DNA of 64,000 nucleotides from the NCBI GenBank assembly GCA_000091205.1, contig AP006484.2. One strand, written 5' to 3'. Numbering within the stretch: the stretch's first letter is position 1; every line of letters starts with the position of its first letter. Position numbers and translations under genes: made by a program. This document shows, one piece after another, positions 1 to 50,077 of the stretch. The notes beneath the pieces are model-generated. The model did not search any database. It was not told where the DNA came from and worked only from the letters and a program-made list of their open reading frames with translations. The stretch is from Cyanidioschyzon merolae. Lineage: Eukaryota.

Positions 1-1188
1 TGGAAACGAGTGTCCTCGTCAGAGGCTCCTGACTATTACGAATTGGTGAAAGATCCGATAGATCTTTCCACAATTTTGGACCGGGTGAACGCTCAAGAAA
101 TTCAGACGATGCATGATCTAGTAGCTGCATTTGAGCTGTTGGCACAAAATGCGCTGCAATACAATCCGGCGGATGATGAGAAGGGAATGCGCATCCGTTC
201 GAAGGCGACTGCTCTATTGGATATCGTCCACCGCTGGGCGGATCTTCTCATGGATCCCGAGGAGAACGAGGAGGAGTCCACGATTATTGCCGAATGCGCT
301 GCAATCGTAGAGCGCAGGAAGCACGAACGCCGAATCCTGCAGTTACAACGACGCCACACCCGATCTCTCGGAAGCGATGGCGTCTTGAGCATTTCGGAGG
401 CTGCCCACCTTGTTTCCCAGTCCCGCAAGCACCACCGCATCCACGAAAGAGCCTCTGACACATTGCATGGATCTCTCCAAGATGAGCAGAACGGCCCTAT
501 GCGTGCGTCCCAAAAAAATTTCGAGGATATCGAGACGCAGCCAAACGCCTACCTTTCGTCGATGGACAACGCGCACCCGCATATCAACGGGAGCGCTACG
601 GAGTTCGCGCCTTGTCTTCGTCAGTCAGAGGGGACGAGCTCGACTTGCTTTCCCCGCGATGTGCAATGCTCACCACTGAGAGATGGATTCGCGACATCCG
701 AAATGGCGACGCCAGCAGCGTTAATCGTCACTCATGATACCGGACTTTCGGCTGGAGATCGCTCCTCCACACCAGAAGTGCAAGAACAGACGTTGAAGGG
801 AGTGCCCAGTGATTCGCCCAGAATTGTAGACATTTCGTCCAAGGAACTCGTGCAGGAGATTGCTCATACAGATTCCGAAATAACGAACTCGGCCACTGGA
901 GCGCTGCATGACGGAAAGCGCCCTAACACGCAGCCCACAGCAAACCAGATGCTCTCGCCTTACATCAGACCACCCGACTCGATGCTTCTCGATACACTGG
1001 AAACGATCATAGCAACATCAGCTGGTTTGTCCGCAGAAGAGCTGATTCGCCTCTATGAACATCTTGCGCACTGCGTGCGACACAAGCACGCACGCACTGG
1101 AGATCGCATCGCAGTGCTGTCCGAGCTGCGTGACATGGCTGCACGCAGTCGGGCGCCCGTAGATGCGCTACGAGAGCCATCTCCCTGA
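1..1188 (+). CDS. Bromodomain-containing protein, C-terminal part (5' end lies outside the window)
   Basis: The reading frame is open back to base 1 (WKRVSSSEAPDYYELVKDPIDLSTILDRVN...LAQNALQYNPADDEKGMRIRS), which is a canonical bromodomain helix B/C motif. A long S/T/P-rich disordered tail follows. Stop at 1186-1188. Confidence 0.7.
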   Translation, partial: WKRVSSSEAPDYYELVKDPIDLSTILDRVNAQEIQTMHDLVAAFELLAQNALQYNPADDEKGMRIRSKATALLDIVHRWADLLMDPEENEEESTIIAECAAIVERRKHERRILQLQRRHTRSLGSDGVLSISEAAHLVSQSRKHHRIHERASDTLHGSLQDEQNGPMRASQKNFEDIETQPNAYLSSMDNAHPHINGSATEFAPCLRQSEGTSSTCFPRDVQCSPLRDGFATSEMATPAALIVTHDTGLSAGDRSSTPEVQEQTLKGVPSDSPRIVDISSKELVQEIAHTDSEITNSATGALHDGKRPNTQPTANQMLSPYIRPPDSMLLDTLETIIATSAGLSAEELIRLYEHLAHCVRHKHARTGDRIAVLSELRDMAARSRAPVDALREPSP

Positions 1189-2630
1189 TGGCAACTCTGA
1201 TCCGTTGTGCATGCGCTGCCTCTGCGCTTCAGGTGTGTGCGCGCGGGGAGCGCACTGCCTCGAGTCGAGCGCTGGCGCTTGCACACGCATCTGGTGATCC
1301 GTGCCGAGGTTCTCGCTATGCGTGAAATGGCATTGCGTGCATGCCGGGATCTCGCAGGTCGCAGCTCACGCATGACGTGTCGCTCGTTCCGCTGCTGCGT
1401 AACCTGGAGCGGCCTGGGCCCTCGTTTGATGAGGTTAAGGTGCTCTTGATGGTGCAGCAAATGTACAAATATCGAGAACGGCTCGTGTTGGGAAGCAGAT
1501 GCGCACCATGAATACGGTAAGCTACTCAGTGGTGGTGGGACCTTTATCGAGCACGACACGGTCGCTCAGAAGCATGCGTTTACATGCTTTGCGGAATACA
1601 TATGTACAAAAAATCCAGATTCTTTTGCGAAAGACCAAGCGTATGAGGTTCCGCCAAAGAACGAAAGCAAATGTCATGAATGGATGGACGCGAGTCACAG
1701 ACCGGGATGCGAATCACGACGGAAACATTGGCGCGGTTCCTTCTGCTCCCTAAAGGCCGTGATGTGTAAACCAATTGTTCTCGCGGATCGACGAATGGTT
1801 TCTGTTGGCGTTCTATGCAAGTCGCACAGCGAATCGATGTTTGAGAGAAAGATGGCAACCGGACTCGCACGCCCGCTACCAAGACGGAGCTTCGACGGGA
1901 TCCCCATCCGAGTCAGTAAAGACGCTTCCATATCAGCGAGGCCGTCCTCTACCGCGGCGACTGGCGCGAAAGCCTCCGATGGAACACCATTCAGCTCTTG
2001 AGCGCCACAGTGGAATCACAGCGTCTTGCTCGCGCCAGTGGGTGACACAGACTCGAGGACCATTAAATATTTGAAAAGGTATAATGGTCCGCTCGCTGAC
2101 TACCGCCAAATGTCGTACAGTCATGGAATGCTTGCATGGTGCACCGATGTCGCCCAGAAATGGAATGCAAAATTGTTGAAGGGTGTTCGATGCTTGAGAC
2201 TCTTCGACGAGTGCACGGCGTGCATGCGAGAGCACCAGCAAGCACAGCAGCTGCTGAAGGACTGAACCATCCCCTAAAGGTCGACATATACTGCGCAGAA
2301 AGCGGGATGCAAGTTTGACGCCCGGATCTTACAGCGCAAGGAACCAGTTCATGAAGATTTCGAGATGTGGCTAGCGGACGCAATTGCCGGCCCGATCTGC
2401 TTACTCGGATCAACGGCTAGCATATTGGTGCTTCTAACATCAAGCAGGCTTCGTGAGCGCACGACAGTAAAATTGATGCGGAAACGTAACTTTCAGTGCC
2501 TGTCAGCAAGCCCGAAGCCTTTGCCTCAGAAATTCCATCCAGTCTCAGGGCACAGCATCCAAGCCGAGCACTTTTGGATGCGCACATACAGCTCGTAAAC
2601 GAAGCGCTGCCGTCATCGAGCGGTTGCTCG

Positions 2631-4457
2631 CTACGAAGGACTCGAGTTCCCGAGTTCGATCCTGCCAGGGGTCATGTCGTTTCTGCTGATTCGCCGCATT
2701 CGCCGACGGCGTCTCCTGCGACGAATGAAGAGCACCAGGAGGCCGACAATCAGTGCCGCGACCGCTGCAGAGGCTACCGTCACAATGCTCGCGATCGCAG
2801 CAGTGTCTAGTGCGTTTCCGCTGCTGGGTGCAGTCTTATCACCAAGTTGCTTCCAATTCATCGAGAGGGCATTGCGGGAGGAGCAGCCCATAACACGTAC
2901 AGGTGTGCCCGTTTCGCTGGTCAGATATTTCGCTAGATCCGCGCTTTGAATTCTTGAAAGGAATCTACCAGCGAAAGCAGGTCCAATAAGCATGATGTAC
3001 TGAGCGAGCGTTCCGCGCGCGAGAGTTTTCCCATGACCACCGCCACCGGAAGCCGTCTCATAGAGCACGATGTCTAGCAGTGGAATCGACGAACTTGCAA
3101 GAATTTCCTGTACGCCCCGTCGCAAGGACGAGTCAATTGCCACGGTAAATTGTTCAGGAGCATACCACGAGAGTTTCGGAAAGTATATCAGAACATACAT
3201 GGGCAGAGATCCGGGAGTCGTGGGTAATCCTCCTCGCAAAGCGCGGGCAGGTGCCTCTAAAGGCCTCTGCCTCCATCGCATTCGCCAAATATCTCCGAAG
3301 ACGGTCTCGTTGCCGAGGCCCCCAATCAACACTAGACTCTCATCATTCACGAGAGTCATCGTGTGGAAGCTGCGCGCGAGGGGCGTATCAGAAGCTGCAG
3401 AGCTGTTACACTCTTGAAGTCTTCGCCAGTTTGCCGCACCTCTGCCGTCAATGTGCACCAACCAGAGATCGTTGAGAGGAACCAATTCGCCCGGATGGCA
3501 CGCTGTCCGATTACCCGAACAAGTGCGGCCTCCAAACAGAATCCAACTCGGATACTGCGACAACCAGGAGGGCGCGCGAGTAAGGGTATGCCCCTCGCGC
3601 GGCAGCGGCAGCGCTTGTGAATCAGCAGATGGAGGAACGTTCTGCCACTCTCCTGATGCGGTGCGGAATATCCATAAATCGTTGAAGACTCTGTATTCTG
3701 TACTGCTGCCATTGATTGAGGCTCGAGAGCCACCGAAGTATAACGAATCTCGGTCGGAAAACGGAGCAGCTGCAGCGGCTGCCCTGGCTGCTGGATAAGT
3801 AGAGTCCTGCTCTGGAGGCCCAGACTCTGCGCAGCTCGCCCCCATACGAGTCGGAAAAAGGATATTCCAGGTGCTCTTCGGGAAATCGAACATAAACACG
3901 CACCGCGAGTAGACTCCATTTCCGATATCACCACCAAAGTAGAGTATCTGTTGGCCGCGCCTCGTCATAGATATGGCTTGTTTCTGGATCGGAATGATGC
4001 CGCGACCCCATCCTGACGGCCATAGCGAGCTCATTCGGTACAATGGAGAACGCTCGATGACCTGCATTCGATCCGCCCAGTTCATAGGCCGTCGAAGAAT
4101 GTCCAATAAGTAAAAACTGTTCGTCAACGCTTCGCTGTCAGCAGTGGTGGTGCTGGCATCCGCGTCAGCTGTGAGGCCCCCGAAAACGACGAGACGGTGG
4201 CCCGCAACAACCGCCGCTTGGAAACTTCGAGCTGCAGGTACCGATCCATCGGCCAGCTCAGATCTGCACGACTCTGAAACGGGGTCGAACAGAAATACAT
4301 CGCCAAAAGGTGTCGCGTCGAAACCGCGACCGGCGTATATATAGACCAGGTCTGTTGTTCCGTTGAAGAAACTGGGTGCTGAGTGACCGTATCGAGGCTC
4401 TAGTGGGTAGTGACTGCTGCGCAGTTTCGACCATTCCACACAGACAGCAGCGACCAT
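2631..4457 (-). CDS. Kelch-repeat (beta-propeller) protein with a C-terminal transmembrane segment and poly-Arg tail
   Basis: A 608-aa ORF with an ATG at 4455-4457 on the minus strand. Kelch-like units recur (GHSAPSF..YIYAGRG..GDVFLFDP; HRLVVFGG; ILYFGGD; SLYFGGS; LVLIGGL). The C-terminus reads VTVASAAVAALIVGLLVLFIRRRRRRRRMRR, a hydrophobic helix followed by a basic stop-transfer stretch. Confidence 0.7.
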   Translation of the reverse strand: MVAAVCVEWSKLRSSHYPLEPRYGHSAPSFFNGTTDLVYIYAGRGFDATPFGDVFLFDPVSESCRSELADGSVPAARSFQAAVVAGHRLVVFGGLTADADASTTTADSEALTNSFYLLDILRRPMNWADRMQVIERSPLYRMSSLWPSGWGRGIIPIQKQAISMTRRGQQILYFGGDIGNGVYSRCVFMFDFPKSTWNILFPTRMGASCAESGPPEQDSTYPAARAAAAAAPFSDRDSLYFGGSRASINGSSTEYRVFNDLWIFRTASGEWQNVPPSADSQALPLPREGHTLTRAPSWLSQYPSWILFGGRTCSGNRTACHPGELVPLNDLWLVHIDGRGAANWRRLQECNSSAASDTPLARSFHTMTLVNDESLVLIGGLGNETVFGDIWRMRWRQRPLEAPARALRGGLPTTPGSLPMYVLIYFPKLSWYAPEQFTVAIDSSLRRGVQEILASSSIPLLDIVLYETASGGGGHGKTLARGTLAQYIMLIGPAFAGRFLSRIQSADLAKYLTSETGTPVRVMGCSSRNALSMNWKQLGDKTAPSSGNALDTAAIASIVTVASAAVAALIVGLLVLFIRRRRRRRRMRRISRNDMTPGRIELGNSSPS

Positions 4458-4739
4458 GGAACAAAGACCACTACACCCGCTCGAAGAGGATACTTAAATT
4501 TGCGGAGAAACAGATCGCTGCTTGCGCCATGTGCTACCCAATCACCAGTATGAACCATTTTGGAACCTAAATGTATATTTAGTTTCATTATAACCCCATG
4601 GCGGCACGTGCGGAGACTTTTGACCTGATCGTTGCTCCTTGCGTAAGGCGCTTGTAGTCTCCCAAATCAATCGTGCTCAACCCCCAGGTGCAAATAATCA
4701 AATGCTTTTGTCGCGGTTTAAGGCAGATGCATTCGATGG

Positions 4740-5205
4740 GCATTCATTTTCAAAAATTAACAATCCAAGGGAAAGGTATTGGCATGGAAGTCGAGGTTCC
4801 TGAAAGCTTGGTGTTGCCAGATCGGTGAAAAATCGGAAAAAACTTTTCTCCCAACAATCGAGCAAAGAAGAGCCAGTGCTTGAAAAGAAGTTGAAAGGGA
4901 GGCGGTCGAGAAAAAAAGTTTTGCCCAAAGGGACGATGACGAGACTGTAGTGGCACAGAGGGCATGAGTTCTAGGAATCCCTCCACTGGTGCGTACAAGC
5001 AGTAGCTAGAAACGCGTGTAATTCGTGAGCTGCGACTTAACCGCCGCCGTTAACACCAGGAGATGTGCGATGCTGAAGACGAGACCCTCAGAGCTGACGC
5101 GGACGAACTTTGTGGAGCAGCCCTTCTTGGATCGAATTGTACAAGGAGTTGAGGCGGAGAGCATGCTGCCGGTCAAAATGACTGGGAGGAGTCTGCGCGT
5201 GGGTA
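4740..5205 (+). repeat. Diverged relic of the TnpB/Fanzor-like element family (3' portion only)
   Basis: About 470 bp align by eye to 47725-48195 and to the 3' end of repeat B. The translated frame gives ..VSCDLTAAVNTRRCAMLKTRPSELTRTNFVEQP.., compared with NRDFNAAINFRRCALLKTEPEELRRYNFVRQP in repeat B. The conserved nucleotide tail ..ggtcaaaatgactgggaggagtctgcgcgtgggta matches the B1 tail. No intact ORF. Confidence 0.45.
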
Positions 5206-6339
5206 GATATGTGTGCTCCCAATGTTCCTAGAACGTTTATCGTTATGCTGAAGCGCATGTAAAAAGTAGTGTTGAATTCTTTCTTGTACAATAATGTGGT
5301 GCAATTTGCTGCACCCACGAGTTGAGATGAAAGAGAAAGATCAAAAACATTCAGAAATGCGATGTTTGCGCATACTGCACGTTAGGAAAGAAGAATGCCG
5401 GAGGTTTGTACGATGAATTGGATAATGACAGCAGTCAGTTTACGAACGCTCGGTCGAATGCATTCCAAATCATCTTGATTCTGGTGACGCTGTAAAGTTC
5501 AGCTGCAAAAATCGATGGAGCAACATCGAGAGCGAACAGAGATCCCTCGAAGTACTTATGAATTCCCAAGCCCTAATTGTAGCCCGTTGTATGCCAAGGC
5601 TGTATAAAAGTTCCTTGAAACATCGAAAGTCCGGAATGGAGCGAGCTGTTCAGTGGTTAACTTAAATCTTAAACGGGTTTAGCACTGCGGTCGCATGGGC
5701 TATAACGCACTCCATGTCCATGCCGCCGTCCCTAGCATGCCACATCCTGCTCGTAAGCGGATGCTGAGCATTTACACAAGTTGATTAGTACGCATCGAAC
5801 AATCAATCCTTGCCAACGAAAGGGAGCTGATGCCTCCCCTTCAGCGCTCCGCATTTACAGATGGTTGCGATGAAAACGCTGGCAATTCTACTGGAAATCA
5901 CAGGACGGTGGAACAGGCTTCGTTTTACTCGAAGCACAACTCTGGTCACGTATTTCGCTCCGGCACTCTCACATTGTGGCCACAGAGCGTATCACTCACA
6001 GCTTGAAACGCGTGCTGGAGCCCATGCAGTATGCGTCTTCGGATGAATGAGCGCTGCGGAAGGTTTCACTCAGACGCCTCCCGGAGCTGTCCTGTTAACG
6101 GTTGAAATTCATATCATAGAGCAGAATTGTAAATCGAGCTCTTGCACCTCTTGTGGCACAGGGACTGATAAGCGCTTCGCCCTCAATGCTCTTTATTCAT
6201 TGCAAAAAGCAAAGCTCCCAAACGCTACTGGATTGAATGCGTACAATGCAGAACCAAGACTGTAGCGTACTCCCCGATGCTACGGCATCGACTGCCACTT
6301 TCATGCTTTACATCCTCAAATGCTGCTGCCAGCTGGGGT

Positions 6340-7767: not shown

Positions 7768-7894
7768 GCTGCTTTCGGAGCTAGGCAATAGAGTCGAAAG
7801 GCAAACTATGGACGTCGCTGCATAGCGTCTCAGTCTGCCGGCGAACGCCAATGCTGCTGCACGCAGTCAAAATGGACGCCAGAACCGCATCGAA

Positions 7895-9296
7895 CGTGCA
7901 CTACATGAAATGTTTCCATCCATGGCATTATAGAGCGGAACGAGTTCCAGCGAGGTAAGACGGCCACACACAATCAAGCATGAGCGTCTTCTCGCTGTCA
8001 TCAACACAGGCTTTTGCCGGGTTCTTTGTGACGAGTTCCTTCGTCCCTCCCTTATATCCTTCTTTGAATACGTCGGTCTCCCCTTTCCCTCGGCATCTGT
8101 TGTCCGCAGACGGAGGAGGTTCATGGCAGCGTTACTGTCCAGACTCCGCACGTTCCGACTGTTGGCCGCACACTTCATGCGCACGCAGGCGTTGCAATCT
8201 ATTTATCGCTTACTGCACTCATTTTCTATGTTTACGGCCTCGGTGCGCCTCTCGCAGGGATGACACCTGCTTATGGTGAAATTCCCTCACATTTCCGCCA
8301 CATATTCTATCTAGAGCGCCGCCACGTAGCGCGCGAACGCGTGCTTCATCCGTCGGTATGTGCCCTTGACATGCACAGGAGGCTCTCTTCAGTGCCCCCC
8401 TCTGTTTGGTCGTCTGGTACGGTACCCCACGATCACGGGCTTGCTGTGAGCGATTCCAGGGGTGCGTTTTCTGTCCAGCGCACACGCGAGCACACGTTGT
8501 TCCATTCGATGAAGGATTCGTCGAATGCAATACTATCTCTGATGAAACAAGAGCCGGAAGCAAGGTCGAGACTGAAGAACAATTCGAAACGTTTCGATGC
8601 ATCTACGCTCCGTTCGTGCAACCAGGTGACGCACGCTTCACCCGGGGAGATCACAGCAATGACTAAAGGCCGAGTCCGGGACCCGTTTCCGCGCAAACGG
8701 AAACTGCGGGAGCCCCTGGGCATCATACCCAGTGAGATGTGTGGTGCCGTTGTCGAAAGCCGTTTCGTCGATAGCCACAAAGAGAGGAGGATTTTTCTCG
8801 CGAACGCGATCGATTATTTGACGTGAACAGCCCAGTGAAGTTGCAACACGAGCTTGTGAAATAGCAGTCGAAGGATGGCGTCTTGGCAAGCACTTTTCCT
8901 CGTCCATCCAGGGGCGCGACATGCTGCGCACGCGAGTTGCCCTGAAACAGAAAGATCGAAGACTTGAAGAATGCGTGATCTAGGCATGCTATGTGTAAGC
9001 AAAAGAGAAGTGCCGCGGCACGTACGCGTCGAAATGTTTTACGATATCGGCTATTTTATTAGCCCGCGTTCGAGCGCGTCGCGAACCATTGTGATCATGG
9101 TCATGCGAAGTATTCCCGGGGTAAAGACTCGGAGGCATCACATCGGAAAGACGTCCGCGGATTCTCGACTGTTTGCGAATCCTCACGCGGTTATCGCTGC
9201 TTATCGGATGTCGAGCATGTACATCCCAAAAGTTCGGAAAAAATGAATGGCAAGAATAGAGTACGCATGTCAGTTTCCTTTCTTAATCCAACACGA
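7895..9296. repeat. Dispersed repeat family A, copy 1 (about 1.4 kb, unclassified)
   Basis: It is nearly identical, with only a few substitutions, to 15848-17249 at a constant offset of 7953 bp. The same nested short ORFs (127, 188, 115 and 97 aa) appear in both copies. No TIR or LTR structure is visible. Confidence 0.85.
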
Positions 9297-9930: not shown

Positions 9931-11302
9931 GAGTTTTCATCTCAATTTTGTCGCACCCGCGCTGCGGTGCGTACAAAGAGTGATCGAAATGACTATGCAA
10001 GATACCATAGATATCGAGGTCGGATTGTCCGTAAGTTACATTCTTTACTAAACCGTGCATGGATCGCTGCATTCCTCCTTCAGGTACGTATACCATAATA
10101 TTCAGATGGTTGAGAAGCACTGAAAGAAAGAAGTATATGCACTCCGCGTCGAAAAGCGATATTTCCAGCGACTACTTGGTGGCGATGCTAGAAAATAACC
10201 CGTGGATCGAGTTAGGGAAAGCAAAACCTGCGATAATGGCTGCCACAGGCGTCCTTCTTTCCCACAAGCTTGTTCGTGTGATCCTAGAACACTGGGATAC
10301 AGTCTCAAAGAACGAGTCCTAGTTCATGCGCGGCCATCATCCACCGAAATCGGAACTATAGTGTTCCTGGCACGACGCGATCCGTAGAAAGCAGAAGATC
10401 GTCGGTTTGTTTTTTCAGTCGATGAGACTTGCTTCGGACGACACGGTCGGAGCGTATATGGGCGTTCGTGGAGCAGGGCACCCATTGTGTGTATCATCTA
10501 ACTCGAAGAGAACGATCACATCATCATCTGTTCTAGATGCAGTGGATTCATTTGGCGGCCTCAGTTTCGCTCGTGGTGGAGGCTCATGCAACAGCACCCT
10601 CTTCTTTGAATCATTGAAGACTTTTCCCTGATGTCAAGCGTAGTCCTGCTATCGGACAGCGTGACATTTTACCATTCCCTTGCGATCGAGCCTCTGCCGA
10701 TTTTATCCGGATAGGTCTGCTTGCCATTCCTCCGTGCTCTCCGTGACTAAACCCCATCGAAGAAGCGCTTTCTATCGTGAAACGTAACCATCGCTCCATT
10801 GGGTGAAGCGCTGAAGCGTTCAGCACACGGTGACACACCAGGGCACATGTCGTCTCGCTTCCGCAAGTCCTTCTTGATCCGTGAAGATCCTCACTTAAGG
10901 GCATGAAGAAGTGTGTTCGTTTTGAAGAAATACAATACCCGAGAGATGAGCTGGGGTGCACACTTCAGAACGTCGAGATGAAGAAAAGCCAGCGGAGCGC
11001 TTCGCTGGTAGAAAAGCACGGAGTGTTGAGAGAGCAGCAAATGGCGCAGACGGCACGTGTTCGAGGAATCCCGCCACAGTTGTGCTCAACGAGAGGCAAA
11101 AAAAACGCATGAAATTCTTGAACCGAGACTTCAATGCCGCTATCAATTTCAGACGGTGTGCGTTGCTGAAGACGGAACCCGAGGAGCTGAGGAGGTATAA
11201 CTTTGTGCGGCAGCCTCTCCCGGCGGAAGTCTATGAGGTGAAGATGAAAACGATAGCAGTGGGCCGGTTGAAAGAGACTGGGAGTTGTCCGCGAATGGGT
11301 AT
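9931..11302 (+). mobile_element. Repeat family B, copy 1: non-autonomous or decayed TnpB/Fanzor-like (IS200/IS605 OrfB-type) element
   Basis: 9931-11284 is about 99% identical to 23941-25294 (offset 14010). The 3' part encodes a RuvC-III-like motif (LNRDFNAAINF). There is no TIR. A subterminal hairpin CGCACC-n8-GGTGCG sits at 9952-9971. The family-level 3' end, to about 11302, is defined by its alignment with the relics at 5.2 kb and 48.2 kb. Confidence 0.7.
9952..9971. other. Subterminal stem-loop at the left end of repeat B (6-bp stem CGCACC / GGTGCG, 8-nt loop); the same structure is at 23962-23981
   Basis: A direct reading of tcgcacccgcgctgcggtgcgtac; it lies about 20 bp inside the repeat boundary. 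Confidence 0.6.
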
Positions 11303-11399
11303 TAGTTCACCTTGGAAAGAACTGAAACTATCGCTCCACCGATCGTATGCAGCGGCCGCTTTGTGCGTTCCCTCTTTTCAATATATTGAGGCAAAATAA
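10950..11399 (+). pseudogene. TnpB/Fanzor-like nuclease C-terminal fragment (RuvC-III region), frameshifted upstream
   Basis: Translation: ..CSRNPATVVLNERQKKRMKFLNRDFNAAINFRRCALLKTEPEELRRYNFVRQPLPAEVYEVKMKTIAVGRLKETGS. D-R-D-x-N-A-A-x-N-[IF] is the OrfB zinc-ribbon / RuvC-III signature of TnpB, Cas12 and Fanzor proteins. Upstream frames contain only scattered Cys and stop codons, with no WED, REC or RuvC-I/II region. Confidence 0.55.
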
Positions 11400-15016: not shown

Positions 15017-15847
15017 GATCCAAGATACGAGTGAAGTTTAGCCAAGGTTTTCAGTGCTCTGCGTCATGGTCGAGCTGCGTTAAACAGAAGAAACTTGTTT
15101 TGTCAAATTTAACTAGACACCTAGGTGGACCACGGCGTCTCGCGGGATTCGGATGAGTAGTTCTGTGGCTCGCCTCGACTGTATCAATCCGCTGGTCGAC
15201 GTAGCCTCCATGAACTTGACGAGGATTCTGGCAACGCAGGGATAAAGAGCGGTCTCGTTTCCTCGAAAGACGCTCGTTACGAAAGTAGCATTCATTGGGA
15301 GAAAGCCGCTAAATCAGAGTTGACGTTGAATGCTGCTCGCTCAGGTCTTTTGTGCTCCCTGCTGAGCATTAACTCGCTTTAGAGTTCCGACATTTTCGGT
15401 CAATTTCCGCTATTTCATCCGCTTATTTCTGGCAAACTTTTCCGCTCTGAGCTGCTTTCGATCTGGGTAGCCAGCGTTTATCCCGTGCGAGAATCGCTTC
15501 TCACAGGAAGCCACAGATTGCTGTTCTCGACCAACGGAATGTCCGTATGACAGTAAACCTGTGGGACGCAGAAACCAGCTCGTTCCAGGCTGTGCAAATC
15601 GCTACTTTGTATGGTTTAAGTTTGATGAATCCTCTCTGAATCCTCTATACATGCAAATGCGAAAACCCGGCTTTCAGGAAAGGAACCGTAGATCCTCCGC
15701 AGAAACCTACATATACCACAAGCTCCTGACTCGTATCAGCGCCAGCAATAGAGTTAAGATCGACCAAGCGTGCCTTCTAGAATCGGGCTCGCTGTAAAAG
15801 CTCTAAATGGCACTGGATGCGCTGCGGCATGCGATACTCGAAGAGCA

Positions 15848-17249
15848 CATGCACTGCATGAAATGTTTCCATCCATGGCATTATAGAGCGGAACGAGTTC
15901 CAGCGAGGTAACACGGCCACACACAATCAAGCATGAGCGTCTTCTCGCTGTCATCAACACAGGCTTTTGCCGGGTTCTTTGTGACGAGTTCCTTCGTCCC
16001 TCCCTTATATCCTTCTTTGAATACGTCGGTCTCCCCTTTCCCTCGGCATCTGTTGTCCGCAGACGGAGGAGGTTCATGGCAGCGTTACTGTCCAGGCTCC
16101 GCACGTTCCGACTGTTGGCCGCACATTTCATGCGCACGCAGGCGTTGCAATCTATTTATCGCTTACTGCACTCATTTTCTATGTTTACGGCCTCGGTGCG
16201 CCTCTCGCAGGGATGACACCTGCTTATGGTGAAATTCCCTCACATTTCCGCCACATATTCTATCTAGAGCGCCGCCACGTAGCGCGCGAACGCGTGCTTC
16301 ATCCGTCGGTATGTGCCCTTGACATGCACAGGAGGCTCTCTTCAGTGCCCCCCTCTGTTTGGTCGTCTGGTACGGTACCCCACGATCACGGGCTTGCTGT
16401 GAGCGATTCCAGGGGTGCGTTTTCTGTCCAGCGCACACGCGAGCACACGTTGTTCCATTCGATGAAGGATTCGTCGAATGCAATACTATCTCTGATGAAA
16501 CAAGAGCCGGAAGCAAGGTCGAGACTGAAGAACAATTCGAAACGTTTCGATGCATCTACGCTCCGTTCGTGCAACCAGGTGACGCACGCTTCACCCGGGG
16601 AGATCACAGCAATGACTAAAGGCCGAGTCCGGGACCCGTTTCCGCGCAAACGGAAACTGCGGGAGCCCCTGGGCATCATACCCAGTGAGATGTGTGGTGC
16701 CGTTGTCGAAAGCCGTTTCGTCGATAGCCACAAAGAGAGGAGGATTTTTCTCGCGAACGCGATCGATTATTTGACGTGAACAGCCCAGTGAAGTTGCAAC
16801 ACGAGCTTGTGAAATAGCAGTCGAAGGATGGCGTCTTGGCAAGCACTTTTCCTCGTCAATCCAGGGGCGCGACATGCTGCGCACGCGAGTTGCCCTGAAA
16901 CAGAAAGATCGAAGACTTGAAGAATGCGTGATCTAGGCATGCTACGTGTAAGCAAAAGAGAAGTGCCGCGGCACGTACGCGTCGAAATGTTTTACGATAT
17001 CGGCTATTTTATTAGCCCGCGTTCGAGCGCGTCGCGAACCATTGTGATCATGGTCATGCGAAGTATTCCCGGGGTAAAGACTCGGAGGCATCACATCGGA
17101 AAGACGTCCGCGGATTCTCGACTGCTTGCGAATCCTCACGCGGTTATCGCTGCTTATCGGATGTCGAGCATGTACATCCCAAAAGTTCGGAAAAAATGAA
17201 TGGCAAGAATAGAGTACGCATGTCAGTTTCCTTTCTTAATCCAACACGA
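15848..17249. repeat. Dispersed repeat family A, copy 2
   Basis: Collinear and about 99% identical to 7895-9296. It diverges from copy 1 immediately outside these coordinates. Confidence 0.85.
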
Positions 17250-18990: not shown

Positions 18991-21900
18991 AACGATACCG
19001 CCGTGTGGAAATCGTCTCCGCGAAGCGTCGCGAGCGAAAAGGAAACTGCATTGTGTCGCACTCTGCACCATCCTGGTATCTGCTTCAAGTTGCGCACGCT
19101 GCTCCTTTAAAGTTGGTTTATTTTCGGCAATCAACCCTCTATGCTCGTTGCAGAAGAATACTGCGATCGCGAGGAACTCCCACCCTCGAGGAATCATATC
19201 ACAATGACTGCGATGTTGCTCCATCCTCTCGTGCTTCCTCGATATTACTTGCGCAGTCGTTTAGAAAGCTACTGTACTGAGAAATTTTCAACAAGTTAGG
19301 CGACGGTTGAAAACAGCACTGAATCTAGTTGGGCTGCGTACACGCACGGAAACGGCAGGAATTGCTCAGCGTGCTGCTCGAAGCGGGAGAGCAGTTCGCC
19401 ACCGGTTTCGGACTAATGGAACACTGGACTGCGCTCTATTCTCCTGCTTTTCAAGCTTTCAGAACTTCTTTAAATGTGCAGCCTCGTGACTCGAGTGCAG
19501 GAATAAGGGCTTGCGAATTAAAATGTGGTTTTACAGTTTACGGAAGTCTTTCCACGGAGGCCTCTTCGACTCTTTGCCGATGGAACTCGATGTCCACGAA
19601 ATCAAGATGAAGCGCTACCTTCTAATAAGGGTTTGTAACATAAAGGATATCATTATCCAGTTCATATGCCCAAGCCTTCGCTCGTCCCCTTTCCTTACAC
19701 GTAGCATGGTCAATCCACGAAGTCTTCAAGTCTTGAATCATTCTGTGTTTAGGCAACTCTAGCGCGCAACATATTGCGCTGCTGTGTCGTCTAGGAAAGA
19801 GAATTCAACAGTGTCCCTTGACGACTTCTTCACAAGTTCAGAGCGAAGTCTCATTGAACTTATCACGACGAATAATCGATTCCGTTAGATAGAAAAATCG
19901 GTCCCTCTCTGCGGCGACCGGCGATACTGCATTCGACAGGAGAATGATACCTCTCAGGATGTGTGCGCCTAGAAGCGCCGGTCAATTCTGCTCGCAAGCG
20001 CAGGTAACTTGGACTCGGATCTCAGTCGTCGCAAGAATCGCTTCCAGTAATGCGTGCGTCTCCGCCTTCAGTGAAGCGAGCGTTGACAAATCGAAATTCC
20101 GCTTCTATTTCTCCAGCCAGGATTTTTCCTTCCGTTGCTTGTTTCATCATGGACAATATCGAGTTCTACAATTCATTCCTAGAATAGAACGGATTGCGCT
20201 TTCAAGTATAGCGACTAGAATATTCGCCGAGGGAGTCGCTCAGAATAAACTCGTGATAGCAGGGTACGGTACCGAACTTGGAAACTGAGAGAAGCGCCTG
20301 TGGAAGTCTTAAATACATGCCACGGAAATGCACCGAGCCATGAAGCAAGCGTTCACAAGTCGCATGTCGGCACTTGGGGAAGTACGTGTGGTGAACGTAC
20401 GGGACCAACCGAACGCAGCCAGGTCCCACCACTGCGAAGAGCTCACCGAGGATGTGTTTTAAGAAGTTGAAAACGGCAATTGGTACCTAAATAGAAAAAA
20501 CATCCTCCTGTACATGAAAGAGTCAACAACAGGTGGAAGCAGGGAGACAGGGAATTTAACGTTGCTACCAGCGTCATTTGACTGTCTGAATCGGAACTGG
20601 GGAAAGTAAAGACCAACATATTTAGAGCAGGAGACCATAGAAAGGAAAAGAAGCTGTCCCTGCGAATGCCGGCAAAAGCCTTTGTTAAAGACCGCGAGAC
20701 GAGAACCAAACTTTGATAGGAATTTCCGAGCGAGCCATGTGGAACACTTTCGATCTTAGTCTCACATGAATGTACTGCAGATGGTGGGCACGCCCTTTAT
20801 AATGAATAAATGTCTGATAATGCCTCTTTACAACTTATATTCAGGAGATTCTAGAAGAAGCAACCGTGCCGTGGATCTTTGATACTGTAAGTGGGAGGAG
20901 ATTTGGAACTCCTACCTCTTCATCCTCTTGACTAATCGCGCACAAAAGCACTCCGACACTTTAACTTGACTAGCTACAACAGACTAATATTTCGTAACCT
21001 CAGGTTACCCCTGGCTCATCTTCAAAGAAAATAAATTTTTCCAGGAGGTACTAAATATGGACAACGTCCAAGAAAAATTCAAAATACGTCATCGAAATCG
21101 CCCTGCTGCGAAAATTAGAAATTCGCTCAGATCTGAAATTTTTGAAAGGCAAATTTCGCTCCCGTGTGCCTTAATAGATGTCTCCCAACAGAATGATTTA
21201 ATGTATTCATAAGCTCAGCCCAAATCGTTCCGGCCTGCGTGAAAACTGATAATTAATTTTTCTTCGTATTCAACGATTAGACTCAACACTGGGCTCGTCG
21301 AACTTGACCATCGTAAAATTTTGCTGCTTCTGTTGATTATATAGGATTCGTTTTTACTGGACCGTCTGCCAAGATCTATACGCAACTAGTGAGTATGGAA
21401 CCTTTACCGCATACTGAGTGCCAGTGGAGTCTAAGTTAATCTTTAATCTTTTTTTCAGGCTGAGGGCCTGCAGCCTTGTTTCTGAGAAAAATACCTGTCA
21501 GAGACCCCGTTGAAACTACGGTGAGCGGTGGAACCATCAAGAGTTACTCTCGGCATCGTTGCGTTTCTCCATATAGAACGCTTTTGGAGAATCCGGCCAA
21601 TAATGAGGGAACTGCGTTCTGAGACTTGACGGAGATTGCTCGAAAAACAAAAAAAGTATTATTGTCATGCGTGGTTCGAACCGCGTCAGATATTCGTGCG
21701 CCTCTTAATGCCAAATGTGGTAGTCGGTGTCACTATCGCATGCTCGCATCCCATCCTGGCTATCTGGTAATGATTTGAGCCTTCGCAATTACTAGTTGAA
21801 TTGCATCTATCCAAGCAATTGGTATCTCAGAAATCCTTTCAGATCATCTCGTGGAATTACACACTTCGAAATAAAACTCAATAAATCCATTTGCGAGTAC

Positions 21901-23940: not shown

Positions 23941-25294
23941 AGTTTTTCATCTCAATTTTGTCGCACCCGCGCTGCGGTGCGTACAAAGAGTGATCGAAAT
24001 GACTATGCAAGATACCATAGATATCGAGGTCGGATTGTCCGTAAGTTACATTCTTTACTAAACCGTGCATGGATCGCTGCATTCCTCCTTCAGGTACGTA
24101 TACCATAATATTCAGATGGTTGAGAAGCACTGAAAGAAAGAAGTATATGCACTCCGCGTCGAAAAGCGATATTTCCAGCGACTACTTGGTGGCGATGCTA
24201 GAAAATAACCCGTGGATCGAGTTAGGGAAAGCAAAACCTGCGATAATGGCTGCCACAGGCGTCCTTCTTTCCCACAAGCTTGTTCGTGTGATCCTAGAAC
24301 ACTGGGATACAGTCTCAAAGAACGAGTCCTAGTTCATGCGCGGCCATCATCCACCGAAATCGGAACTATAGTGTTCCTGGCACGACGCGATCCGTAGAAA
24401 GCAGAAGATCGTCGGTTTGTTTTTTCAGTCGATGAGACTTGCTTCGGACGACACGGTCGGAGCGTATATGGGCGTTCGTGGAGCAGGGCACCCATTGTGT
24501 GTATCATCTAACTCGAAGAGAACGATCACATCATCATCTGTTCTAGATGCAGTGGATTCATTTGGCGGCCTCAGTTTCGCTCGTGGTGGAGGCTCATGCA
24601 ACAGCACCCTCTTCTTTGAATCATTGAAGACTTTTCCCTGATGTCAAGCGTAGTCCTGCTATCGGACAGCGTGACATTTTACCATTCCCTTGCGATCGAG
24701 CCTCTGCCGATTTTATCCGGATAGGTCTGCTTGCCATTCCTCCGTGCTCTCCGTGACTAAACCCCATCGAAGAAGCGCTTTCTATCGTGAAACGTAACCA
24801 TCGCTCCATTGGGTGAAGCGCTGAAGCGTTCAGCACACGGTGACACACCAGGGCACATGTCGTCTCGCTTCCGCAAGTCCTTCTTGATCCGTGAAGATCC
24901 TCACTTAAGGGCATGAAGAAGTGTGTTCGTTTTGAAGAAATACAATACCCGAGAGATGAGCTGGGGTGCACACTTCAGAACGTCGAGATGAAGAAAAGCC
25001 AGCGGAGCGCTTCGCTGGTAGAAAAGCACGGAGTGTTGAGAGAGCAGCAAATGGCGCAGACGGCACGTGTTCGAGGAATCCCGCCACAGTTGTGCTCAAC
25101 GAGAGGCAAAAAAAACGCATGAAATTCTTGAACCGAGACTTCAATGCCGCTATCAATTTCAGACGGTGTGCGTTGCTGAAGACGGAACCCGAGGAGCTGA
25201 GGAGGTATAACTTTGTGCGGCAGCCTCTCCCGGCGGAAGTCTATGAGGTGAAGATGAAAACGATAGCAGTGGGCCGGTTGAAAGAGACTTGGAG
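23941..25294 (+). mobile_element. Repeat family B, copy 2 (TnpB/Fanzor-like relic); its 3' end is about 20 bp shorter or diverged relative to copy 1
   Basis: About 99% identical to 9931-11284. The hairpin CGCACC-n8-GGTGCG sits at 23962-23981. After ..aaagagact the sequence differs from copy 1 and from the other family members. Confidence 0.7.
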
Positions 25295-25304
25295 GCGCCT
25301 CTGA
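24960..25304 (+). pseudogene. TnpB/Fanzor-like RuvC-III fragment (copy 2)
   Basis: Same translation as in copy 1 (..RMKFLNRDFNAAINFRRCALLKTEPEELRRYNFVRQPLPAEVYEVKMKTIAVGRLKET), then it terminates (..WRRL*). Confidence 0.55.
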
Positions 25305-25585
25305 CTAAGTGTTATTTTAATCTTCCTGGTGGTGGAATGTTTTTAGTTTTACTGAGCCTATGGTGCAGATTCCACGATGATTTCGGATACGATTTTTCGT
25401 CGTTGCACTTGCGAGGGTGCACCGGTCAGAAGTAGAGCCGCGAACTTTCCGCTGTTTAAGACGCCGAATAAGTTTCCGTGGGTAGAAGGGCATCGTTTGC
25501 TTCTTTGTGTCGACCGGCCAAAAGAGTGGAGCCTGTGAGAGGTACGTCCACCACGACGAGGGATCTGTAGGGCAGAAGCCTGCCA

Positions 25586-27982: not shown

Positions 27983-28155
27983 GTGCTTCGACCTCTATCG
28001 AGGTATTGTAATCCTTAGATATTGTCAGACTGACGGCTGAGGCGGAACTGCTTACAGCAGCAAATCTCTGCCCTTCGGCACGCTTACACCAGTGCAAGCT
28101 CTTGTATCTGTAACGGCATCTGCTGTGTCTCTTCTTCGTGTTTTCCCGCAGGAAC

Positions 28156-30372
28156 TCGACAAAAAGATTTCACCCCGTACATTCGAGAAAGGTCACGTAA
28201 GCACTACATGATGTCAGTGCTTGCATTTGAAAAACGAACTTACTTTCACATGCAAGTCATTCTACGAACGGCGGGTACAGGAACCACCCTTCTCGTAGTC
28301 CACATACTACGTGGTGTGCATCCAAAATAGAACTTATCAAACTCGCTATCGACGACTGTTTCCTCGTCAATCCTTTCCGTGCGATACGTTCTTCACGAAA
28401 CGCTACCAAGGAAGCAACAGTGCGGCAACTTTACGCAACGCTGATACGAACGGTGGAGAACAGACACGGATGGAAAAAGTAAGATGTATGCCTCTATGGG
28501 AGAGCGGTGCGCGTTGCTCACCGAACTATCAGAGTCGCACCCAAATACAAAAGCTTATTGCCGCAGCAACGAATGTTCGTCTCACTCGACGAGACTTCAG
28601 ACGTAGTAGATCTGCATGAGGGCACTCGAAGAGGGCCCCATTGTCGCCCGTGCAGAATAGACGAGCGAGCATTCCGACAACGTCAGCCCTGGCGATGATT
28701 CCACTGCTTGGTCGCCTACGAATCGAGAAAAGCACAGGGTAGTTCGGCAACGCTTCTCGTCACCTAAGCAGTTCGTGGCTCCCCGTTACCGCTATCTTCC
28801 ATCCTGCTCTTTTACAGCGTTGCTTTCCGTCATCCAAAGGCGGTCCAGGAGCACGTGCCCGAGACTGGCATTGAGCGACTATTTGTGCCTGCCGATTCTC
28901 CGAGATTCGATCCTATGAAAGGCATCTTCTCTGCTGAGAAACGCCAATATACGCTCCCGGATCGATAGTCGAGTCGTTCGCATCCGTGGAACCGTCCGTC
29001 GACGAGTCCTTCCGTGCTGGTACTATCCCGGAACTGGGCTGCTGACCCTCTGCTCGAGCCAGGAAGTGAGCGGAAGGGCTCGCTTCGGTCGCACCGCCGG
29101 CCCAGTACCAGTGAGTCCCGAGGGATAACATTCGGATGTAGCGTATAGGAGAAAAACCCACGGAGAGACGAGATCAACCTGCAACCATGGTCAAGGCACT
29201 CCTACGAAAACACATCACCTGGTAGAATCTCTCCCAAAGTGAGACGCTGGACGTTGTTTAGCGAAAAATGCCTCCTACTCTGGGAAGATTCGTCTTCCTT
29301 CTCTCGCCTTGACACACATCCTCAAGCGACTGTTGGTAGGATTGTAGGAGACAGGACGGGCAGCTGTCCAGAGTCTGCCGTTACGTATTCAGTCCAACCC
29401 TGGTGCGACAACTGATGCTCTCGATGGAAGACGGAATACATACCCGGCTTTTCTATGGCTGTATCTCATCGAGAGTCGGGCATGTTCGACGCTACGAGGC
29501 GCACCAGCAAGCGGAATGTCGGCGTCACGACCTGTCTTGACACACTGGGCTTCGCATCGAGCAGGGAATGATGCTCCAGACGCCTCTCATAGAGTATACA
29601 TGATCGTCCGGATGGGTCATACGGGCGCACTTTGGCTAAAGCACATGCATCCGTGTTGAGGTCGCCAACGTTTCCGGTTATTCGGAGGGGAAAAACGTGC
29701 ACTCGCAACTCTCTCGTTGCATTCGATGAGGAATTGGCAGACGTGTTGCGTCTGTTCTTTGGTTGTAGCCTACGGCGCTGGATATGCTGTTGGGCGCGAG
29801 GGTCGCACTCGTGCCGCATGTGGAGCACACAAAGAGTGCAGCAACCCATGCTGCACGATGCCCGTCTTTGCGTACAGGACGGCATACATATATTGCGAGC
29901 ACAGGTGCGCACTGAAACCTGCACGGGAGAAGAGCGTGAATCGACGCTGGATGCACGGGATGTCGCACAAAAAGCTGACCGAAGGTCAGGTTACGAGAAC
30001 ATTGACCGTGGGCGGCTTGGCTTGGTGTGATTCGACCAGGAACAACGCGCACAAGCACTTGCTGCAGCATGACTTGAAGGTTTCGATCAGCAGTCGGGAC
30101 TATCCCACGCTTCCAAAGCGACCAGCGGCTTTATCTTCGGAGGAATTTGGAGGGAGTCCTTTCGCAGCTAGTGTGGGCATTGTGCTGGAACGCTGAAGGC
30201 TTGCGATGAAGAAAAGCAGTATCGGCCAGGAGAGAGGGTCGGGTTTCCATCCGAAGCAACGCACAAGGATGATGTCGTCAGCGACCCAGATATGCTAGAG
30301 CGCCGAATGCGTACACCGAGAATGATTTACCATGGCAATCGGTGAAAGATAAATATGGTCCATTATTCGAAA
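28156..30372. repeat. Dispersed repeat family C, copy 1 (about 2.2 kb, unclassified, no long ORF)
   Basis: About 99% identical to 58246-60462 at a constant offset of 30090. It starts TCGACAAAAAGATTTCACC and ends ..TGGTCCATTATTCGAAA. The 11-bp inverted repeat at 28232-28264 has one mismatch in this copy. No TSD, TIR or LTR is evident. Confidence 0.85.
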
Positions 30373-31639: not shown

Positions 31640-31870
31640 GGTCTAGCACATGCACTCAGCTCGTATGCTCGACGAACGTACAATCTCGTTCAGTTGCATT
31701 AAGTGAAGTTCTATTGCATGCACTCAGCTCGCATGCTCGACGAACATGCAATCTCGTTCAGGAGCACAAAGGAAAGGTCTACTGCATGCGAGCGACTCTT
31801 GTTTTGGACTAACATCCGAAATGGCTCTGGGGTACTGTGTCAAGGTCTCCTGCATGCGAGCGACTGTGTC
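31640..31870. repeat. Degenerate tandem repeat (about 50-70 bp unit, 3-4 copies) containing repeated CATGCA / GCATGC motifs, just upstream of the next gene
   Basis: Recurring units are gcatgcactcagctcg[t/c]atgctcgacgaac[g/a]t[a/g]caatctcgttcag (twice) and ctgcatgcgagcgact[c/g]t (twice). Confidence 0.6.
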
Positions 31871-47334: not shown

Positions 47335-47724
47335 GGGAGCCCGTGCGTTGCGTTTCCGTGCGTCGCCTTGCCTTGCTCAGCTTTTCGGAGGACCTTGGAA
47401 TACAGAACCCTTTCTTCCCAGTAGCGCGCACGGATGTGCAATGCTCGCGGGAAATCGTTATTTGGCGCGAAATCGCTAGTCGACAGCGGCGCTGCCGGCG
47501 GGGTCTCGCTGCTCAGCCATCGCCATGGGTCGTAACCTAAAGAATCCCAATTGTACATTTATAACCCTAATTGTACATAAATCGCTTCCTCGAAGGCCAT
47601 GGACCGTATCGCGAGGGAATTCGGCCCTTCATCGTCAGGGTCCTTGTACTCTTCCAGTTCAGTTGTGTTCCATCCCAGGTGCGTGTCAAAAAACGCTTTT
47701 TCGTGGTTTCTAACAGATATACTC

Positions 47725-48195
47725 GAAGTGCATTCATTAGAGGAAATAAAAAATGCAAGGGGAAGGTATGGACGCAGAAGTCAGGGATACTGGAGGACCG
47801 TCAATGCCGGATACAAAAAATGTAGGGATTCCTCTTCCGACCGAGTATCGACTGAAGTAGAGCAACTAAAAAAGAAGCAGAAGAAGGGACACAGACGAGA
47901 AAATGTGCTACTTCACGGGATGATGACCAGACTTTGATGGCACAGAGGGCACACGTTCGAGGAATCCCTGCCATGGAGAGTTGAACCAGAGGCAACCAAC
48001 GCATGGATTTCGTGAACCGAGACTTCAGCGCCGCCATCAATATCAGACGATTTGTGACGTTGAAGAAGAGACTCGAGGAGCTGACGTGGGCAAATTTTGT
48101 CCGGTAATCTCTCATGCTCGAAGTGTACAAGGAGAAGCTGAAGCCGACTTCAGGAGGCCGGTTGAAAAAGGCTGGAGTAGGCTGGGAGTGGATAT
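47725..48195 (+). repeat. Diverged relic of the TnpB/Fanzor-like element family (3' portion), homologous to 4740-5205 and to the repeat B tail
   Basis: The translated frame gives ..TRGNQRMDFVNRDFSAAINIRRFVTLKKRLEELTWANFVR*, the RuvC-III motif, then ..LEVYKEKLKPTSGGRLKKAGVGWEW (compare B: AEVYEVKMKTIAVGRLKETGS). The nucleotide tail ..ggccggttgaaaaaggctggagtaggctgggagtgga is conserved with B1. Confidence 0.5.
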
Positions 48196-50077
48196 TCTTT
48201 TAACCCTCGGTTTCGAAACTTTCTCGCTCCATTGCCCGAATACGATAAAACAGTTAGATGTTCGCTCTGCTCCTGCATGTAAATAGTTTATCCAGAATTT
48301 TCTGACGTGTACGGCCTCGACAATCGATGTGTAGCGATATGGTCTTGCGGATTGAATCGTGGTCGAAGGACCCGCGGTGGTATTTTCGGAATGACACGTT
48401 TGCAGCTTGGCCGGGGATATTCGATATGTCACCGGAAGCAAGATGATTCGTGACGTATTCGAATAAAGGTTCGTAAAATAACCGACATGGTCATCCAGTG
48501 GATATGTAGAAACCTCTACAATTCTGTTTTATGTACGCCCAGCATGGTAAAACCATGCATTGTCCTAGTTTTCGTGCTTGCAATCTCAAGCAAACTCGTG
48601 GGTGCAGCCATTCGAGCCGCAGATTGGATGGCGAGATGAGTCGACCTCTTCCCTCAACTACTAGTTTTCATGCTCGTGCCCATGGTCAATTGAACTCCTG
48701 CGCCAAATAATCGATTTCATTCGAAAAACAAATCCGCCAACGGTGACATCTACAGAATGGTTACCCGCTGCAGCATGAGACCCCCATGGGGTATGCTCCT
48801 CGAGGCTGCCGTCTCGTCTGATTCGCTCGAAAACGGTCATAGGCTCGGACTTTAGTTATCATAAAAACCGCTGCCATCGGAGAGAGCGTCACAGAATTGC
48901 AGGAAGCAAGCGTGAAGGGATCGAAAGTTCTCGACTTGTTCGCCAGCCTCGAGTTCCTTTTCTGTGTAGGTTTCGTCTTCGATAACACCGCGAACCACGA
49001 ATTCTCTATCAAATGGAACGACATCCGCTTCCATATACAGCTGATATACTACTCGGGGAGAAAATCGCCCAGAAAAAGTATGTGATTGCAGGGTACGGCA
49101 GCAAGCGTTGAAACAGATGAGGGCATCGAGGCGAGCCTTCTGTAACAGTCAAGTTCATGGATGGAGCAACGAATCAAGGCTCCATGCTCCGCAGGGCAGC
49201 GCTCGTAGGTGGAGACGATTTGGCGCCCATATAGGGATACTTGACTACAGCCAAGTGTGACCATTGCGTAGAAAACACCTAGCCTGTGCGCAAAGAAGAT
49301 GAAGATGGCAAGCGAGGCGTAGATCGAAGCATCCGCCTGCCCATGAACTGTGTTGACAACCACCGAAAGAGGAAAAATTGTATTCCAAGATCATCATCAA
49401 AATCTTTCAACTGTTAACAACGGAGTTGGAGAAAAAACAGACCGGCTTCATTAAATCCAGAGTTCCGAGAGAGAAGCTGAAGCAGTCGCAGAAAAAGAAG
49501 GCGAAGGCTATTCGGGATGGCAATTGGAACAGACCCAAATTTTCAGCGTGTACGCCTTACATAGCTAAATGGACTCATTCCAATGTACTCAAATATCGAT
49601 ACAGAACTTGCCGCATTCAGCGGAGCTGCGCCAGGTCGGGACCGCCTCCGTCAAAAAACGCTTCGCTACGTGCGAACCTCGAACCGCTGTCGAGTGGCGA
49701 TAAAAGGAGATGGTCTCTTTCTTTGGACAGTTTCTACCAGCTGTCCGCTAGATAGCGCTACGTTGCTTTTGATTCGCCGAGATTTCATTCGCTCACGGCG
49801 TAGTGCAGGTCTCAGATCCATGCTATGTTTAAATTGACTCTGGAAAGTTCTTGCGTTTGAACGCCATTGCGACAGGGCGAGCGCTCTGCTCGATGATGCT
49901 TCCGATAGGGGATGGATCCAACCAGCTACGAATGTATTGTAGTCCTCGGCCGGCGCAATAGTATCCTTTTATCATTTCGAATTGGAAAGAGCGCAGTGCA
50001 AAACTGCGTGCTATTCTCGTCGCAGCCTACTGGCCGAAAATCTGGAATGAGAATGATTGTTGGCGTTTGGACCCATA

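Follow-up and report, generated by a model that had tools for sequence, protein, structure and literature searches.

A probable relic of an internally deleted CMe-1A Fanzor1 element in an intergenic interval of Cyanidioschyzon merolae

We analysed a 64,000-nucleotide stretch of Cyanidioschyzon merolae contig AP006484.2 (hereafter the window) and conclude, with a probability of roughly 0.88, that positions 4651 to ~5262 represent a copy, decaying neutrally, of a 'mini' derivative (~600 bp) that arose by internal deletion from the transposable element CMe-1A. Judged by its sequence, the 4.7-5.2 kb copy is a member of this already published Fanzor1 family. As previously reported, CMe-1A occurs in C. 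merolae in ~150 copies, each ~80% identical to a 3169-bp consensus; the element is without TIRs, its TSDs could not be found by the original authors, who left its class open, and its 5' 635 bp are also present in a separate element, TE-N2_CMe (Bao & Jurka, 2013, Mobile DNA 4:12, PMC3627910). One Fanzor family was given for C. merolae in that 2013 survey, whose supplementary files 2 and 3 supply the CMe-1A DNA consensus (3169 bp) and the CMe-1 protein (734 aa) used here. The consensus contains an ORF at 906-3110 (734 aa) with ~59 bp after the stop codon, and encodes RuvC-I (GADPG) within 2190-2207 and RuvC-II (VDEFRTS) within 2709-2726.

The copy is located between the start of a Kelch-repeat gene at 4457 (minus strand) and the end of a WD40 gene at 6340, in an interval of 1882 bp with a GC content of 0.479 vs 0.524 for the window, in agreement with the 1.9-kb AT-rich gene-free interval described in the original prediction. 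For annotation purposes, this 'gene-free' interval can largely be explained as transposon debris. Large intron-less ORFs with eukaryotic domains are present throughout the window, and the products of five of them match proteins of C. merolae strain 10D exactly (BAM78886, BAM78889, BAM78892, BAM78893 and BAM78895). Searches of the window for tRNA genes and Rfam families were negative. A blastn self-comparison of the window gave a 565-bp alignment of 4651-5205 with 47643-48194 (66.7% identity, E~1e-34) and aligned 4951-5122 with the tails of both repeat B copies, B1 and B2 (11042-11215 and 25052-25225), at 71.3% (E 9e-19). The similarity originally noted between these tails is real and far above chance, although identity to the sequence at 47.6 kb is 67% rather than 70%, and the unit does not begin at 4740 as had been proposed: the homologous unit extends from ~4651, with family-level homology up to ~5262. 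The features of the copy and of its relatives in the window are as follows.

4651-4777, plus strand: 5' leader of the mini, untranslated and upstream of the Fanzor1 start codon, corresponding to CMe-1A ~785-905; the alignment starts at 4655 = 788.
4778-4952, plus strand: remnant of Fanzor1 codons 1-55, from the K/E-rich N-terminus to '..DDETVV', equivalent to CMe-1A 906-1070 in the mini-consensus alignment.
4947-4958, plus strand: deletion junction between GTAGTG and GCACAG, where CMe-1A 1070 is joined to 2835.
4953-5231, plus strand: remnant of Fanzor1 codons 644-734, from blastn and tblastn matches to CMe-1A and CMe-1, with the ancestral stop codon TAG at 5229-5231.
5232-5262, plus strand: 3' non-coding end; homology fades past a '..CGTT-ATGCTGA' block and the terminus is placed to +/- ~15 bp, from alignments of 8 and 18 3' ends.
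10936-11340, plus strand: B1 tail, covering CMe-1A 2737-3084 from the 3' part of a CMe-1 element that has no deletion, with a 2-bp insertion in a poly-A run.
24946-25350: B2 tail, the equivalent of the B1 tail.
47643-48250, plus strand: second mini copy with the same left boundary and junction (CMe-1A 793-938 and 2832-3073), 78.8% identical to the mini consensus.

Alignment to the published consensus indicates that the copy combines sequence from the 5' and 3' sides of a CMe-1 element, brought together by a large internal deletion. Blastn matched CMe-1A 800-969 to window 4667-4840 (71%, E 1.3e-15) and 2840-3088 to 4958-5200 (70.6%, E 2.7e-24), tblastn matched CMe-1 residues 640-724 to 4941-5207 (44%, E 2e-12), and a single contiguous local alignment covers 4655-5200, with CMe-1A 788..1070 joined to 2835..3088 (72% over 520 aligned nt). 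Consensus positions 1-792 had no blastn match in the window. The deleted interval, CMe-1A 1071-2834, comprises 1764 bp or 588 codons and is in frame; TG(G)AAAG microhomology is present at both breakpoints, which show no GT..AG. Both RuvC-I and RuvC-II lie inside this interval and the RuvC-III remnant alone survives (CDLTAAVN at 5031-5054, with the Asp codon GAC at 5034-5036). The remnant of codons 1-55 can be read in frame as RDDDETVVAQRA, with the start codon at 4778-4780 mutated from ATG to ATT, and relative to the subfamily consensus the copy has accumulated three in-frame stops and four frameshifting indels. It contains neither a full RuvC triad (D, E, D) in one ORF nor the full ~3.2-kb CMe-1A architecture (5' 635 bp of TE-N2_CMe and a 734-aa ORF). 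All of the motif peptides quoted in the original prediction were recovered in one frame, but its view of the unit as a 3' module only had to be abandoned, as the left ~300 bp (4651-4952) are that element's own 5' leader and codons 1-55. An initial reading of the left 300 bp (4651-4950) as a RuvC-II / zinc-finger region was also rejected, as this segment aligns to the 5' leader and N-terminus of CMe-1A and of a near-intact full-length metagenomic copy, L005.

The deletion is not a one-off. Its junction recurs at 47.6-48.2 kb and at a further 16 unlinked hot-spring metagenome loci, and the minis therefore constitute an amplified, non-autonomous subfamily. Scanning JGI metagenome contigs (numbered here with the prefix L) with the junction-side peptide identified 45 loci, which together with L008 and L009 (both found through ORFs) and the two window copies clustered into 19 groups with unrelated flanks; the contigs possibly derive from several Cyanidioschyzon strains or species, so these counts may not refer to a single genome. 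Mini spacing was observed in 17/17 groups matching CMe-1A by blastn and a full-length interior in 0/17, all 18 aligned distinct copies share an identical junction with GACGAGACTGTAGTG on its left and GCACAGAGGGCA on its right, and at least 10 ORF clusters carry RRDDDETVVAQRARV. The left boundary at 4651 is common to 47643, L008:3627 and 12 further loci (15 copies starting at consensus ~785), and the mini 3' end reaches ~30 nt past the stop codon. One locus, represented by L019, L026 and L028 (JGI contigs Ga0080006_1145833, Ga0078972_1001951 and JGI24721J44947_10046250), has the same deletion junction yet retains CMe-1A 37-937, suggesting that the 5' 784 bp either were lost in a second, separate step or belong to a separable, TE-N2_CMe-like module. 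No TIRs, TSDs or exact termini were discernible in the mini copies, as was also the experience of the original CMe-1A authors, and the window has no inverted repeats involving the copy and no IS200/IS605-type subterminal hairpins there. We therefore infer transposition of the minis from dispersed copies with one breakpoint rather than from an insertion footprint, none having been seen.

Identity to the mini consensus ranges from 77.4 to 84.3% among the 18 copies. At 79.4% the 4.7-5.2 kb copy is indeed old and diverged, as originally proposed, but it falls mid-range and does not exceed its relatives in age. The consensus of the sublineage to which its tail belongs is ~75% identical to that of CMe-1A. 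The deletion-derivative subfamily slightly extends the published description of CMe-1A.

Three minis are located 190-430 bp from the 5' end of a divergent gene (gene and mini positions 4457/4651, 47334/47643 and L008:3201/3627), and crude ORF calls place a minus-strand ORF to the left of the mini in 13/17 loci. A promoter-proximal insertion or retention bias may be hinted at by these positions; we claim no orientation or neighbour bias. An additional dispersed repeat of 120-180 bp (66-76% identity) is present at 5307-5490 (+), 8895-9013 (+), 16848-16966 (+), 19680-19798 (-) and 48428-48608 (-). It is found directly downstream of both window minis, in opposite orientations, and close to minis at L015, L017, L030, L032 and L033, and has no relation to the CMe-1A consensus. 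One copy of it is contained in a 1.4-kb direct repeat (7894-9296 / 15847-17249, 99.4% identity) with short ORFs on both strands. Elsewhere in the window, 31642-31777 comprises a tandem pair of 68-nt units (81% identity) inside a 149-bp self-similar stretch (31649-31865).

The tails of repeat B represent the same old sublineage as the minis, but without the junction: they read through EQQMAQTARVRG and cover CMe-1 codons 608-729. B1 and B2 (9934-11284 / 23944-25294) are 99.9% identical over 1351 bp, and past this identical block (11285-11340 / 25295-25350) both continue as CMe-1-like 3' ends that differ from each other, which resembles the outcome of gene conversion or ectopic recombination involving two old copies more than that of a recent insertion. 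Preceding the B1 tail at 10040-10931 (and at 24050-24941 in B2) is a frameshifted pseudogene of a Tc1/mariner-type DDE_3 transposase (PF13358, E = 3e-4), and at an unrelated locus, L009:3118-4010, the same element (71% over 900 bp) lies directly next to a CMe-1 mini. The right end of the DDE_3 element is equal in repeat B and L009 and the CMe-1 breakpoint is different, suggesting nested insertions or an association of both elements.

A TnpB/Fanzor-type origin, the central proposal of the original prediction, is supported by profile comparisons and by the placement of the copy on CMe-1A. A translated-tail profile recovered 164 short ORFs from hot-spring metagenomes, and longer metagenomic ORFs reach into a typical Fanzor1 C-terminal half (LVVAYGAGRW..PAPT..VDEFRTS..FVNRDFNAAINIRRC). 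The metagenome contig L007 contains a nearly complete gene of ~750 codons with RuvC-I FVVGADPGNTN, interrupted by one frameshift and one stop. Exhaustive HMMER searches with Fanzor1-like proteins yielded 793 representative clusters at E <= 1e-3, many of the proteins being 600-700 aa. A profile of 36 full-length relatives from these clusters matched the Parasitella parasitica Fanzor1 structure (PDB 9cf0) in two stretches (E = 2.8e-16) covering the DPGR and DEFRTS..GLL.C..NRD..A.N blocks, and the window tails matched the same profile by hhalign with a probability of 97.6% (E = 3.9e-12). Only this full-length-relative profile reached Fanzor1: a profile of C-terminal halves had no match in the PDB, and single-sequence searches with the tail ORF, the protein P0055 and the repaired full-length translation of L007 gave no Pfam or PDB match. 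Matches to Pfam PF07282 (Cas12f1-like TNB) were all below threshold (E 0.004-0.3), though consistently placed. A scan of viral contigs found no relatives. The window also contains a second, far more diverged Fanzor1-like pseudogene (29449-30178 / 59539-60268), in which only the C-terminal ~240 codons are recognisable; it has 31% identity to CMe-1 (E = 2e-20), is nearer to the metagenomic protein P0127 (E = 3e-27), and sits in a 2.2-kb repeat (28147-30372 / 58237-60462) that is 98.8% identical between its two copies.

The original prediction placed the differences between copies at synonymous-like positions, took this as a sign of protein-level selection, and named an even distribution over codon positions as contrary evidence. 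The distribution is even. Pairwise differences at first, second and third codon positions number 27/23/23 against the 47.6-kb copy and 28/22/22 against B1, and differences from the mini consensus number 31/23/22 for the copy (p = 0.41) and 388/400/403 for 18 copies pooled (p = 0.68). Nei-Gojobori (NG86) omega is 0.73 for the copy and 0.74 pooled, inside the 95% range of 0.70-0.90 (omega 0.80) obtained when neutral evolution was simulated under the observed substitution spectrum and analysed with the identical pipeline; the divergence pattern gives no sign of selection on a protein in the copy or its subfamily, and we discarded a reading of omega 0.74 as weak constraint. The test has power, because the near-intact full-length copies L005 and L007, used as positive controls, gave omega values of 0.39 and 0.33 and a third-position excess (7/7/20 and 10/4/15, respectively). 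A third-position excess seen in some old copies relative to the CMe-1A consensus was attributed to divergence between sublineage masters (18/15/28) and not to evolution of the copies. L008 and L009, in which long open frames are still present, have a mild third-position excess (15/18/27 and 14/21/27; p ~0.11), and weak constraint early in the history of the mini subfamily is possible.

The ancestor was nevertheless coding and the copies decayed after insertion, because the consensus frame of the copies is open while every individual copy is broken; the low omega (0.33-0.39) of near-intact full-length copies likewise points to ancestral coding. It has been noted that coding capacity is maintained in some CMe-1A copies (PMC3627910), and the contrast between neutral minis (omega ~0.74) and full-length copies (0.33-0.39) supports the earlier suggestion that selection maintained the Fanzor1 ORF. 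Four strain-level contigs, 99.3-99.7% identical to the window, carry the copy at the corresponding position, and its SNP density of 16.4/kb is the maximum of the neighbourhood, vs 10-12/kb for other intergenic sequence and 2-8/kb for genes. The 4.7-5.2 kb copy is a neutral relic that has lost all coding capacity and has no present function.

These observations give the following history. A full-length CMe-1 of the older sublineage lost consensus 1071-2834 between the TG(G)AAAG microhomologies, probably by microhomology-mediated repair or replication slippage, so that codons 644-734 and the short 3' end came to follow the 5' leader and codons 1-55 in one frame. Consensus 1-784 is also missing from most copies, including the one at 4.7-5.2 kb. 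A single deleted master was then copied to many unlinked intergenic sites, as the common junction indicates. Because the mini cannot encode a nuclease or transposase, mobilisation would have occurred in trans, presumably by the machinery that moves CMe-1, and every copy subsequently decayed without constraint to ~77-84% identity to the master.

We weighed this history against three others. The original reading of a 5'-truncated pseudogene fragment, with only the 3' module left and its divergence recording past protein-level selection, draws on the recognisable C-terminal 90 codons, including the RuvC-III motif, and on the open frame in the consensus of copies. We consider it highly improbable: the contiguous alignment over the junction already refutes it, as the left part (4651-4952) was not truncated away but is homologous to the CMe-1A leader and first 55 codons, the internal junction is common to 18 copies, and the uniformity of codon positions and an omega at the neutral expectation leave no trace of such selection. 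Scarcely conceivable is that the minis are retrocopies of an aberrantly processed Fanzor mRNA, starting near the transcription start (~120 nt before the ATG) and with the interior removed as RNA. Most minis do begin at ~785, 121 nt before the ATG (906), and end ~30-60 nt after the stop codon, but the breakpoints have microhomology in place of GT..AG, the 3' ends show no poly(A) tail, and the L019/L026/L028 locus combines the junction with consensus 37-937, sequence lying ahead of the putative start of transcription.

In TnpB and Fanzor systems the guide RNA is encoded at the 3' end of the element; the omegaRNAs of TnpB overlap the ORF at its 3' end, and the fRNAs of Fanzor lie at the 3' end and overlap the transposon end (PMC10530073). 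By analogy, the minis might be guide-RNA satellites that kept the 3' ~330 bp as an omegaRNA or fRNA and exploited Fanzor1 from full-length copies, the window copy being a dead member. They do keep exactly the 3' end while losing the nuclease core, and full-length copies under purifying selection could supply the protein. On the other hand, RNAalifold predicted 0 consensus pairs in 17 aligned 3' ends (decayed copies, for which the method has little power), the window had no Rfam match, the consensus continues for just ~59 bp past the stop codon, and both ends would be kept in any deletion derivative regardless of mechanism. A hairpin picked out by eye before the stop codon (GGGTAT..ATACCC variants with apparent compensatory changes) was rejected, with a mean z of -0.04 vs shuffles across 21 copies. 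We regard the satellite reading as very unlikely. A related speculation, that the minis mark the minimal cis sequences (785-1070 and 2835-3169) and that their ancestor spread as a guide-RNA-only hitch-hiker on Fanzor1 from full-length copies, is unlikely; if true, it would provide a eukaryotic counterpart of non-autonomous TnpB/omegaRNA elements, with the window copy still a dead relic.

Under the preferred reading of a decaying internal-deletion derivative, the region alone is a fossil of a transposon family catalogued in the C. merolae genome in 2013 and has little significance by itself. The subfamily adds a modest point: at least some 18 dispersed copies without RuvC-I and RuvC-II imply that CMe-1 can spread without Fanzor1 protein encoded in cis, and that the sequences sufficient for spread lie within ~285 bp (5') and ~335 bp (3').

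Compared with the Parasitella parasitica Fanzor1 (PDB 9cf0), the CMe-1 family is homologous and shares the DPG.., DEFRTS and NRD.NAA.NI RuvC motifs, whereas the window copy is broken and, of the three catalytic motifs, has the third alone; CMe-1 further differs from characterised Fanzor1 proteins in that the canonical CxxC zinc-finger cysteines are not evident. The minis resemble internal-deletion derivatives of DNA transposons (MITE-like elements and the palindrome-associated PATE derivatives of IS200/IS605) in their size of ~600 bp, in combining sequence from both parental ends with loss of the coding core, and in their many dispersed intergenic copies from one deleted master, with an identical breakpoint found at unlinked loci. 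They differ from these in having no demonstrable TIRs, subterminal hairpins or TSDs, and in a 5' boundary that is not the parent's published 5' end. Relative to CMe-1A itself, the mini subfamily is without 1-784 (including the TE-N2_CMe-like 635 bp) and without 1071-2834, and this deletion derivative is absent from the main text of the original description (PMC3627910). The two nevertheless occur in the same genome, are homologous at the nucleotide level, belong to the same protein family (CMe-1, 734 aa) and fall in the same age class, with ~80% identity to the consensus for the published copies (PMC3627910) and 77-84% to the mini consensus for the minis.
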